Virus record (IMG/VR): IMGVR_UViG_3300006139_000004
Location: 1 to 64,000 of that record
Strand: one strand, 5' to 3'
DNA length: 64,000 bases
Origin: a virus
Lineage: Duplodnaviria; Caudoviricetes
The position numbers and the translations under genes are program-made. A model generated the notes under the pieces. It was not told the origin of the DNA. It ran no database searches and saw only the letters and a list, made by a program, of their open reading frames with translations. Shown here in pieces: positions 45,692-46,747 of the stretch; positions within the stretch are counted from its first letter, which is position 1, and the number at the start of each line of letters is the position of its first letter.

Positions 45692-46330
45692 ATGACTACT
45701 GAGAAGATGACTGTTCACAAGGCTCTTGCTGAACTGAAGGTGCTGGATGATCGTATTCTTGCCGCCATTGGTGCTTGCAATCTTGTTACTACTAAGAAGA
45801 ACAATCAGGATAAGGTACGTGGCAAGACCGTTGCAGAGTTCACCGCCGATGCCAAGTCTGCTTACGATAAGGCAACCGACCTTATTAAGCGGCGCAATGC
45901 CATTAAAGATGCTGTGAATGTGTCTAATGCTAACACTACTGTCAAGATCGGTGATCAGGAGTATACTGTGGTTCAGGCTATTGACAAGAAGAATCATGGT
46001 ATGGATTTCTTCAAGAGTTTGCGTGACACTATGGTAGAGCAGCTTGCCAAAGCAAAAACCGATCTTGAGCGCAATAACGATAGCCTCCAGCAGAAGGCAG
46101 AGCAGTTTGTAACTGGCCTGATGGGTAATAAGGATGCCAAGACTAATGGAGATGAGTTTGATGCCTCTGTTCGGACTTACATTAAGTCAAACTCTATGGA
46201 GTTGATTGATCCTGTTGGACTTGAGAAGCGGATCGAGGAACTGGACAGTATGATTACGGCGTTCATGACCGAGATTGATGCTGCCCTGTCCGTCAGTAAT
46301 GCTCTGACCACCATCGAGATTACTTACTAA
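45692..46330 (+). CDS. All-helical coiled-coil protein (resembles DIP1984/DUF6847-like family)
   Basis: MTVHKALAELKVLDDRI...EIDAALSVSNALTTIEI; codon usage typical of high expression. Confidence 0.65.
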   Translation: MTTEKMTVHKALAELKVLDDRILAAIGACNLVTTKKNNQDKVRGKTVAEFTADAKSAYDKATDLIKRRNAIKDAVNVSNANTTVKIGDQEYTVVQAIDKKNHGMDFFKSLRDTMVEQLAKAKTDLERNNDSLQQKAEQFVTGLMGNKDAKTNGDEFDASVRTYIKSNSMELIDPVGLEKRIEELDSMITAFMTEIDAALSVSNALTTIEITY

Positions 46331-46333
46331 AGC

Positions 46334-46747
46334 ATATCTCTCTTCGCTGCATGGCGAAAACTATAAACCATGACACGCCTGAGTTTTTGGGAAAAGAGTT
46401 CTGAGGTGTAAATTAATAAAAACTCTACCCACCTTCTGAAATTACGGTTATCGTAATTTTTAATACATAATCAAATTGGAATATGATTATTATATAAAAA
46501 TTATTAATTCTATCAAGTGGGAATTGCATTATGACGGTTCGCCACAGAATAGAACTTAAAAGATGACTGTAAAGTTCAAGGCTGAAAGTTGAAAGCTGAA
46601 GGCTCAATGCTAAAAGTTTAGACTTATCAAAGGTGAAAGGTTAGGCAACAAAGTTAAAAGGTAGTCAAAATCCTTGTAAATGGTTTTAGGAATTGTCATG
46701 CTTGTCCTTTAGTGATCCACAAGGCAGCTATGTAGCGAGGTTGATAT
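46334..46747 (+). ncRNA. ~410-nt structured RNA with heptamer repeat array
   Basis: 14-bp long-range stem CTTCGCTGCATGGC/GCTATGTAGCGAGG (3 G-U), CATGACA/TGTCATG, TGACTG/TAGTCA flanking the repeats. Confidence 0.75.
46571..46663 (+). repeat. 13 degenerate tandem heptamers, consensus AARGYTN
   Basis: aaagttc aaggctg aaagttg aaagctg aaggctc aatgcta aaagttt agactta (tc) aaaggtg aaaggtt aggcaac aaagtta aaaggta. Confidence 0.85.

Follow-up and report, generated by a model that had tools for sequence, protein, structure and literature searches.

Few classes of large structured RNA are recognised in bacteria and phages, and RNase P, tmRNA, 6S, OLE, ROOL/GOLLD and the omega-RNAs each opened new biology. 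The RAGATH series of motifs is credited to Weinberg et al. 2017 (PMC5737381) by PMC8191799. One orphan of that series, RAGATH-18, was later shown to be the cofactor of a neighbouring gene (PMC11061315), and another, RAGATH-27 (RF03100), is held in Rfam as a model of 86 positions with one hairpin. Here we describe a 399-nt structured RNA whose 5′ end is, by synteny and alignment, a divergent RAGATH-27 homologue, and a gene for a 212-residue helical protein directly upstream of it. Both lie in a 64,000-nt stretch of DNA from a Caudoviricetes phage (positions 1 to 64,000 of IMG/VR record IMGVR_UViG_3300006139_000004), called the window below. The source is a 133-kb gut phage, whose record (133,491 bp, with terminal repeats) holds the gene and the RNA once each. 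We found that this gene-plus-RNA pair occurs in hundreds of large phages, T5 included, and that its two parts very probably form one functional unit.

In Rfam searches, positions 46343–46430 of the window aligned with the full length of RAGATH-27 (1–86) at 31.0 bits (E = 0.27), below the curated gathering score of 76.1. The corresponding RNA of Dulem virus 39, whose gene is 47% identical, scored 77.2 bits, above that threshold. The window RNA and the model share a UUCNCUG..CGAAAAC..UAAAC consensus and the single annotated hairpin, and the CUG..CGAAAAC..UAAAC block followed by a hairpin with an A-rich loop recurs in 16–20 aligned relatives. The sequence-only reading of this locus had not recognised the RNA family, which holds for the remaining ~300 nt, as these are uncatalogued, and fails for the first 86. 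The real unit is 300–470 nt long: what the Rfam model treats as an unpaired 5′ tail is largely the 5′ strands of helices P1, P2 and P3, and that model includes neither the pseudoknot nor the array of heptamers, and neither the 3′ domain nor the partner gene. Dulem virus 39 also carries a type II hammerhead ribozyme (L001 483–547, 59 bits) 3.5 kb upstream of the module, an observation that agrees with the origin of the RAGATH name. A literature search returned no paper naming RAGATH-27, T5.085 (the T5 homologue of the protein) or the protein family phrog_1491, and heptamer-repeat terms were likewise empty; DIP1984, 3KDQ and DUF6847 led only to Acinetobacter plasmid annotations and unrelated papers. 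We found no earlier description of the full RNA, its array or its partner protein, and the module is probably undescribed.

Several known systems share single features with this locus. CsrB and RsmZ, read by CsrA and RsmE, likewise present many short motifs that a two-fold dimer could fill pairwise, with several dimers per RNA. Their motifs, however, are GGA in hairpin loops at irregular spacing, whereas those described here are AARGYUY in a strict 7-nt register; the CsrA fold is unrelated to that of the window protein, and in Csr systems the protein is not encoded next to the RNA. TRAP (MtrB) on the trp leader is likewise a base-specific oligomeric reader of evenly spaced short repeats, but it is an 11-subunit β-sandwich ring that reads (G/U)AG every 5–6 nt, whereas the window protein is a helical bundle with a 3–4-strand sheet, modelled as a dimer, and the repeat period is 7 nt. 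Type III toxin–antitoxin systems (ToxIN, AbiQ/antiQ and CptIN) likewise join a protein gene to a cis-encoded repeat RNA, which here too might inhibit the protein. Their repeats, each a processed antitoxin unit of ~34–36 nt, precede the toxin gene, and the toxin that cuts them is an endoribonuclease of a different fold, whereas the present units are 7 nt long, lie downstream of the gene and are enclosed in a 399-nt knotted fold. No nuclease fold, of the ToxN/AbiQ type or any other, was among the fold matches listed, an absence that is not in itself exclusionary. We rejected a TRAP-type protein on the AARGYUY units, their period of 7 and the helical protein, in place of the defining (G/U)AG triplets spaced 2–3 nt apart and the 11-mer ring, and a type III system on the size and position of the repeats. 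The sequence-only reading had cited both, and they survive as analogies only, with their defining features absent. Ro60 (Rsr) with Y RNA and YrlA, and TnpB with omega-RNA (RAGATH-18), likewise have an end-paired structured RNA encoded beside its partner, and YrlA likewise has tRNA-like modules and RNA-repair genes nearby; the present locus has no TROVE, vWA or RuvC domains and no guide segment, and its heptamer array is without counterpart in them. Among the other candidates rejected, tmRNA was found neither by ARAGORN in the window nor by Rfam at E ≤ 1, and a 7-nt period cannot encode a peptide such as the tmRNA tag. RNase P and T-box gave no Rfam match at E ≤ 1, and neither did ROOL or GOLLD in 44000–49000 or in loci L001–L003.

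The region is a genuine structured RNA, because its helices covary. Folding of a 420-nt region gave −108.8 kcal/mol, against −85.5 ± 5.2 kcal/mol for shuffled sequences (z = −4.5). A protein search of IMG/VR provided 47 loci at 42–66% identity, and further loci came from GenBank phages. All loci with a CGAAAAC-type motif after the stop codon carried a closing helix of 13–14 out of 14 bp 290–470 nt on, and the sequence of this helix varied between lineages. In a 20-sequence alignment, the 37 pairs of helices P1, P2, P3, P5 and P6 were paired in 91.4% of cells, compared with 34–48% when the partners were slid by 1–3 columns. Compensatory changes were found in 31 of the 37 pairs, and not one of 500 shuffles did as well. 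An alignment of 55 distinct sequences was obtained with R1, a covariance model covering the 3′ half of the RNA; in it the 3′ domain was 91.9% paired (43–49% in slid controls) and P5, P6 and P7 covaried (87–99.6% paired), the two middle pairs of P5 occurring as UA, AU, CG and GC. A check by homologues and covariation, as proposed in the sequence-only reading, thus bore out its RNA: there is a downstream structured RNA at all testable loci, and its helices covary.

This RNA is a closed, multiply knotted scaffold (Table 1), made up of the closing helix P1, the P2 helix that reaches into the P7 loop, an H-type pseudoknot of P3 and P4, an array stem and a P5–P6–P7 domain. The pseudoknot, whose third loop is A-rich, is followed by the variable region, by the array, which is carried on a separate stem, and then by the 3′ domain. 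The 14-bp closing helix had been noticed before, and we confirmed it together with its G–U pairs, of which there are exactly three on the plus strand; the opposite strand would have A–C mismatches at these positions. The helix begins 11 nt past the stop codon and not 3 nt as had been stated. Two other early proposals stood as well: CATGACA/TGTCATG (P2) is real and covaries, and TGACTG/TAGTCA closes the array, as its equivalent does in relatives, where it occurs in two different registers. Across the 55 sequences this array-closing helix was 85% paired and mostly invariant, with little covariation. P4, the sole hairpin annotated in RAGATH-27, changes in sequence in nearly every lineage with its complementarity kept, as read from the alignment. 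The two runs GAGTTTTT and AAAAACTC do complement each other in the window, as described, but their pairing and the covariation-supported pseudoknot exclude one another; covariation is silent on the choice between the two because each of the runs is conserved in sequence. The GAGUUUUU/AAAAACUC helix named in the sequence-only reading was rejected as the main fold, since it excludes the covarying P3 and P4. CCCAC/GTGGG (46428–46432 with 46517–46521), a further, putative helix of the sequence-only reading, extends into the variable region and is in competition with the GGG/CCC pairs at the base of the pseudoknot stem.

Table 1 Positions of the module and of related features in the window
Feature	Positions	Strand	Basis or remark
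tRNA-like element without anticodon	45586–45647	+	Rfam tRNA, 48.3 bits
Open reading frame, 212-residue helical protein	45692–46330	+	PHROG 1491 member, T5.085 homologue, DIP1984-like fold
Whole structured RNA, 399 nt	46342–46740	+	bounded by closing helix P1
P1 5′ strand, 14-bp closing helix	46342–46355	+	12 of 14 pairs compensatory, 96% of cells paired
Unpaired joiner GAAAAC..UAUAAAC	46356–46368	+	invariant or near-invariant columns; belongs to the RAGATH-27 consensus (Rfam alignment)
P2 5′ strand (CAUGACA), long-range to P7 loop	46369–46375	+	compensatory in 6 of 7 pairs
P3 5′ strand, pseudoknot stem 1	46376–46383	+	compensatory in 8 of 8 pairs, 87.5% of cells paired
P4 5′ strand (GGG..AGAGUU), pseudoknot stem 2	46389–46400	+	Rfam structure line
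P3 3′ strand, within P4 loop	46401–46408	+	covariation count
Pseudoknot loop 3, A-rich (UAAAUUAAUAAA)	46409–46420	+	conserved GUAAA..AAAA columns
P4 3′ strand (AACUCU.A.CCC)	46421–46430	+	Rfam structure line, alignment
Variable region, local hairpins	46431–46563	+	alignment gaps; length and content vary by lineage
Array-closing helix, 5′ strand (UGACUG)	46564–46569	+	read from sequence
Array first half, 7 in-phase heptamers	46571–46619	+	Tandem Repeats Finder, column frequencies
Spacer, 9 nt, can form a mini-hairpin with the seventh unit	46620–46628	+	read from sequence
Array second half, 5 heptamers, phase +2 nt	46629–46663	+	unit 46643–46649 degenerate
Array-closing helix, 3′ strand (UAGUCA)	46662–46667	+	pairs with 46564–46569
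P5 5′ strand (CCUUG), preceded by conserved AAAAU	46672–46676	+	99.6% of cells paired
P6 5′ strand	46681–46683	+	3 of 3 pairs compensatory, 98% paired
P7 hairpin (AGGA/UCCU)	46688–46708	+	4 of 4 pairs covary
P2 3′ strand (UGUCAUG), in P7 loop	46694–46700	+	partner of 46369–46375
P6 and P5 3′ strands (CCA, CAAGG)	46717–46724	+	covariation
P1 3′ strand	46727–46740	+	pairs with 46342–46355
RNA end-healing/sealing fusion, 730 residues	48224–50416	+	P-loop kinase (AAA_33)/calcineurin-like phosphoesterase/T4 Rnl1-type RNA ligase

The RNA and the gene accompany each other whichever of the two is searched for. Starting from the protein, R1 matched once per locus, immediately downstream of the gene and in the same orientation, at 49 of the 49 IMG/VR and GenBank loci that had enough flank. 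Eleven of these have an open reading frame of ~95 codons between gene and RNA, with the RNA intact (L026–L029, L031–L033, L042, L046, L049 and L050, at about 3140–3440). The RNA was also downstream of the gene in all five bacterial assemblies and behind the gene in 12 of 12 isolate phages, namely T5, Pantoea AAS21, Brevibacillus Jenst, Clostridium D-1873, Bacillus Bcp1, phiCD211, Dulem virus 39, Lysinibacillus LC76P1, Ralstonia RsoM2USA, Xanthomonas XaC1, Vibrio Chloris and Pseudomonas REC1. In these isolates the best R1 match fell in an unannotated gap of ~260–1230 nt, the matches in Bcp1 and REC1 being marginal (E = 2e-3 and 4e-3, respectively). In the reverse direction, a DNA pattern derived from the array retrieved 68 confirmed RNAs, and in all 50 cases where 1300 nt or more of sequence preceded the RNA, the protein gene lay upstream on the same strand. 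Two distant single-protein queries added 0 and 1 new loci. Searching GenBank phages with the RNA by blastn gave no match, and distant copies were reached by the covariance model only. The module is conserved among large tRNA-carrying phages, spanning those of Firmicutes and Proteobacteria, and the window holds one copy of it. The overall interpretation in the sequence-only reading, a ribonucleoprotein system, is supported in part: the structured RNA is tied to the upstream gene in both directions, with no exception where there is enough flank.

In T5 the gene is T5.085 (NC_005859 43505–44143, minus strand), which RefSeq labels 'tail fiber protein'; its neighbours are annotated as endolysin, exonuclease, RNase H and tRNAs, with no structural genes among them. 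The T5 RNA occupies ~43143–43493 on the minus strand (L057 2644–2994), in an unannotated gap of 351 nt after T5.085, and has a 17-bp P1 with three G–U pairs and the same pseudoknot. In the same record a predicted 'promoter' feature (43067–43141) lies immediately past the 3′ end of this RNA, and T5 annotates a separate 719-nt stable RNA, rnaX (40848–41566), of unknown function. With an obligate partner gene and a copy in a model phage, genetics and biochemistry are feasible at once.

A near-identical copy of the module in Clostridiaceae bacterium strain 9 allowed the two parts to be compared over a short distance. The protein is 100% identical, and all 20 differences in the 639 nt of coding sequence are synonymous. 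The RNA (L180) differs by six substitutions in 399 nt, three of them in the variable region and all of them in the variable region, the spacer, position 7 of a unit or a joiner. As the coding changes are all synonymous and the RNA changes are few and at variable or unpaired positions, gene and RNA are both under strong purifying selection, with the RNA changing several-fold more slowly than synonymous sites. Strain 9 also has a second module on another scaffold (L184, QXXE01000029.1), 46% identical, with an RNA of 54% G+C that scored 84 bits with R1. On one further contig, two partial matches to the 3′-domain model lie next to each other (L106 263–402 and 442–562, minus strand), which may represent either one copy split by a large insertion or two copies in tandem.

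The central feature of the RNA is its heptamer array. The sequence-only reading had counted 13 continuous heptamers; we found instead seven in phase, a 9-nt spacer and five more shifted by 2 nt. Tandem Repeats Finder reported periods of 7, 14 and 21, limited to 46571–46618. Across the 55 sequences the unit consensus was A-A-R-G-Y-U-Y, and the count of seven units in the first half was conserved (gaps < 5%). Within the first half, A1 was invariant (1.00), A2 reached 0.95–1.00 (0.76 in one unit) and U6 0.91–1.00, G4 ranged over 0.44–0.96, and there was free variation at positions 5 and 7. We observed no partner-specific covariation among the first-half repeats (off-diagonal z from −2.4 to 2.3); higher values, up to z = 4.3, came from a few repeat pairs that include a second-half unit. 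Together, the conservation of the array fits base-specific reading by a ligand better than fixed RNA–RNA pairing, though it would also be compatible with promiscuous self-association. The heptamer consensus was identical in phages of Gram-positive and Gram-negative hosts, and the ligand should therefore be either universal or phage-encoded. We know of no precedent for a strictly periodic array of a single motif.

The partner protein matched phrog_1491 over its full length (6.9e-55), and its family comprises 2305 clusters at 50% identity with a nearly constant length of ~205–218 residues. Neither Pfam nor NCBIfam matched the window protein, and a weak coiled-coil-like PADLOC match (PDC-S06, 15.6 bits) was dismissed. 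The AlphaFold2 (AF2) model (predicted local distance difference test, pLDDT, 95.8) shows two long helical hairpins and a small sheet formed by an N-terminal strand, a central β-hairpin and a C-terminal strand. Two Ser-Asn-Ala motifs (78–80 and 202–204) lie at helix ends; K16, N79, D196 and N203 are invariant, and the conserved basic residues are K16, R21, R67, R68 and K72. The earlier guess of a DIP1984-like protein agrees with the only outstanding fold match, DIP1984 of Corynebacterium diphtheriae (PDB 3kdq), which VIA-align superimposed over 151 of 152 residues on model residues 5–209 with Z = 11.2, a root-mean-square deviation of 6.2 Å and 13% identity. No other chain reached Z ≥ 8 (next Z ≤ 7.6), with the caveat that applies to helical bundles, and Foldseek gave a probability of 0.97 (E = 0.036) for the same entry. 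The two proteins share helical hairpins that end in a small sheet and an Asn motif at the helix ends, and the window protein is longer by ~60 residues. The nearest Pfam family is PF20935 (DUF6847), whose hidden Markov model did not match the window protein up to E = 10 and matched 5 of 79 relatives weakly (best E = 0.019); a family profile found nothing below E = 0.04 among PDB sequences.

A four-copy model of the protein gave an ipSAE of 0.49, against 0.00 for the best control; this mark was reached by 20 of 30 homo-pair proteins and 1 of 23 single-chain proteins, counts that are approximate for the present case because our own alignment and four copies were used. Runs shared at least 86% of contacts, with a partner pLDDT of at least 79. 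The protein is modelled as a two-fold symmetric dimer, because the same set of residues forms the interface on both chains.

Gene and RNA are co-oriented, and the gap between them is too small for a promoter; they are therefore probably a single transcript, of which the RNA forms the 3′ part. Neither a convincing promoter nor an intrinsic terminator was found between them. Just upstream of the gene, where relatives have an ordinary tRNA, the window has a tRNA-like element whose acceptor, D and T arms are normal but whose anticodon arm has shrunk to a 4-nt insert, and ARAGORN does not call it; we infer that it is probably a processing signal. Same-strand tRNAs were found in most scanned loci, where frequently one lies just upstream of the protein gene and frequently one begins 4–14 nt past P1. 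In three loci (L002, L099 and L124) a tRNA is embedded within the variable region of the RNA. The tRNAs that abut the RNA or sit inside it suggest release by tRNA processing.

Considering these features together, we favour docking of protein dimers on the heptamers in the style of CsrA on CsrB, which we consider about as likely as not. It is preferred because the linkage is absolute, the array is conserved in the manner of a ligand site, the motif is independent of the host and the protein is modelled as a dimer. The RNA would be cut free by tRNA-processing enzymes acting on the flanking tRNAs or tRNA-like elements and would be stabilised by these and by the closing helix. Its fold would then hold out the two-part 7 + 5 array of A-A-R-G-Y-U-Y units on a short stem, and the DIP1984-like dimer would read the invariant A1, A2 and U6. 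Likely contacts would be the two conserved Ser-Asn-Ala motifs, K16, R21, R67, R68 and K72, and several dimers could load on each RNA, as CsrA dimers do on CsrB. The particle would be active early in infection, in a process connected with RNA, tRNA or translation.

Several observations weigh against dimer docking. With a median pI of 5.6 and a net charge of ~−3, the protein family is mildly acidic, which is unusual for a protein that coats RNA, and the fold match lends no functional support because 3kdq is itself functionally uncharacterised. What the model shows is a closed dimer, unlike the open polymer with one subunit per repeat that the sequence-only reading had envisaged. Since R-G-Y-U cores are able to pair among themselves, thermodynamic folding leaves the array barely more open than the rest of the RNA (unpaired probability 0.42 versus 0.38). 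Strict linkage would also be expected if the RNA did no more than regulate or stabilise the mRNA, or if the protein served only to help the RNA fold.

If the partnership is true, it would offer a first way into the function of the orphan motif RAGATH-27 and of the DIP1984/DUF6847 fold and would correct the 'tail fiber protein' label of PHROG 1491 and of RefSeq records such as T5.085; it may also be relevant to the way in which phages that carry their own tRNA sets deal with translation or RNA damage. More tentatively, the module could represent a new class of ribonucleoprotein, extending from T5 to Herelleviridae to jumbo phages, virulent and temperate, in which a knotted scaffold RNA would offer a strict 7-nt register for the assembly of DIP1984-like dimers. 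Such a particle would act on a universal host component of the tRNA or translation apparatus, for instance through the capture or shielding of anticodon loops able to read the AAR-purine units. If so, this would be the first function for DIP1984/DUF6847 proteins.

The array might instead be a sponge or decoy for another ligand, such as a ribonuclease or RNA-binding factor universal among hosts, or tRNA anticodon loops, with the protein as chaperone, stabiliser or adaptor, which we consider somewhat unlikely. Its units read AAR plus a purine, resembling a Lys codon in a T-box specifier; units 4 and 6, however, show no constraint at position 3, which means that Lys codons do not account for every unit. 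The constancy of the consensus across Gram-positive and Gram-negative hosts and the acidity of the protein are consistent with a sponge, as is the position of the module in tRNA clusters beside RNA-repair genes (the kinase–phosphatase–RNA ligase fusion 1.5 kb downstream of the module in the window, and an RtcB near the module in Dulem virus 39). Against it, the adjacent protein is the sole component that co-occurs without exception, and we know of no universal host factor that reads AARGYUY.

It is unlikely that the RNA works as an RNA-only multimer, in which the quasi-palindromic R-G-Y-U cores would zip arrays together within or between molecules and the protein would be accessory. About 60% of the cores are self-complementary (AGUU, AGCU, AAUU, GGUU and GGCU), first-half units can form 2.2–3.4 of 4 pairs with one another, and RNAfold pairs positions 4–6 in roughly two thirds of the ensemble. 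ROOL and GOLLD provide a precedent, being described in PMC5737381 and bioRxiv 10.1101/2024.12.08.627333 as large phage RNAs beside tRNAs that form RNA-only assemblies. However, the remaining ~40% of cores (AGAU, AGGU and AUUU) are unable to self-pair, the first half lacks partner-specific covariation, the invariant A1 and A2 would be left unpaired, and the absolute linkage to the protein gene would go unexplained.

A cis-acting 3′ untranslated region of the protein mRNA, serving as stabiliser, terminator or translational control and never as a separate RNA, is quite improbable. The start of the RNA 11 nt past the stop codon with no promoter-like site between, and a linkage that is always in cis and on the same strand, agree with it. 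A knotted fold of 300–470 nt with a conserved 12-unit array nevertheless exceeds what an mRNA stabiliser needs, the RNA stays intact in the 11 loci with an intervening ~95-residue reading frame, and tRNAs abut the RNA or sit within it. Finally, although short direct repeats are typical of origins, a role of the repeats as DNA (origin iterons or a protein-binding array, with incidental RNA helices) is effectively excluded because the G–U pairs are specific to the sense strand: the helices accept G–U and not A–C (3 of 14 P1 pairs in the window and 3 of 17 in T5), compensatory changes are extensive and the orientation to the gene is fixed.

Around the module, the window shows some further features, all on the plus strand unless stated. 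Directly after the RNA there is a 14-bp hairpin without a U-tail (46752–46783), followed by a non-coding stretch (46771–47012); 46741–47012 differs from the Clostridiaceae copy at three positions only. Farther downstream, a DUF6273 protein (47254–48114) has a C-terminal part that is unusually G+C-rich and is overlapped by an antisense open reading frame (47305–48282). Upstream, right after a tRNA-Ser (42295–42385), ARAGORN reports a 93-nt 'tRNA-???' with a 2-nt anticodon (42389–42481), which may be a second odd tRNA-like gene.

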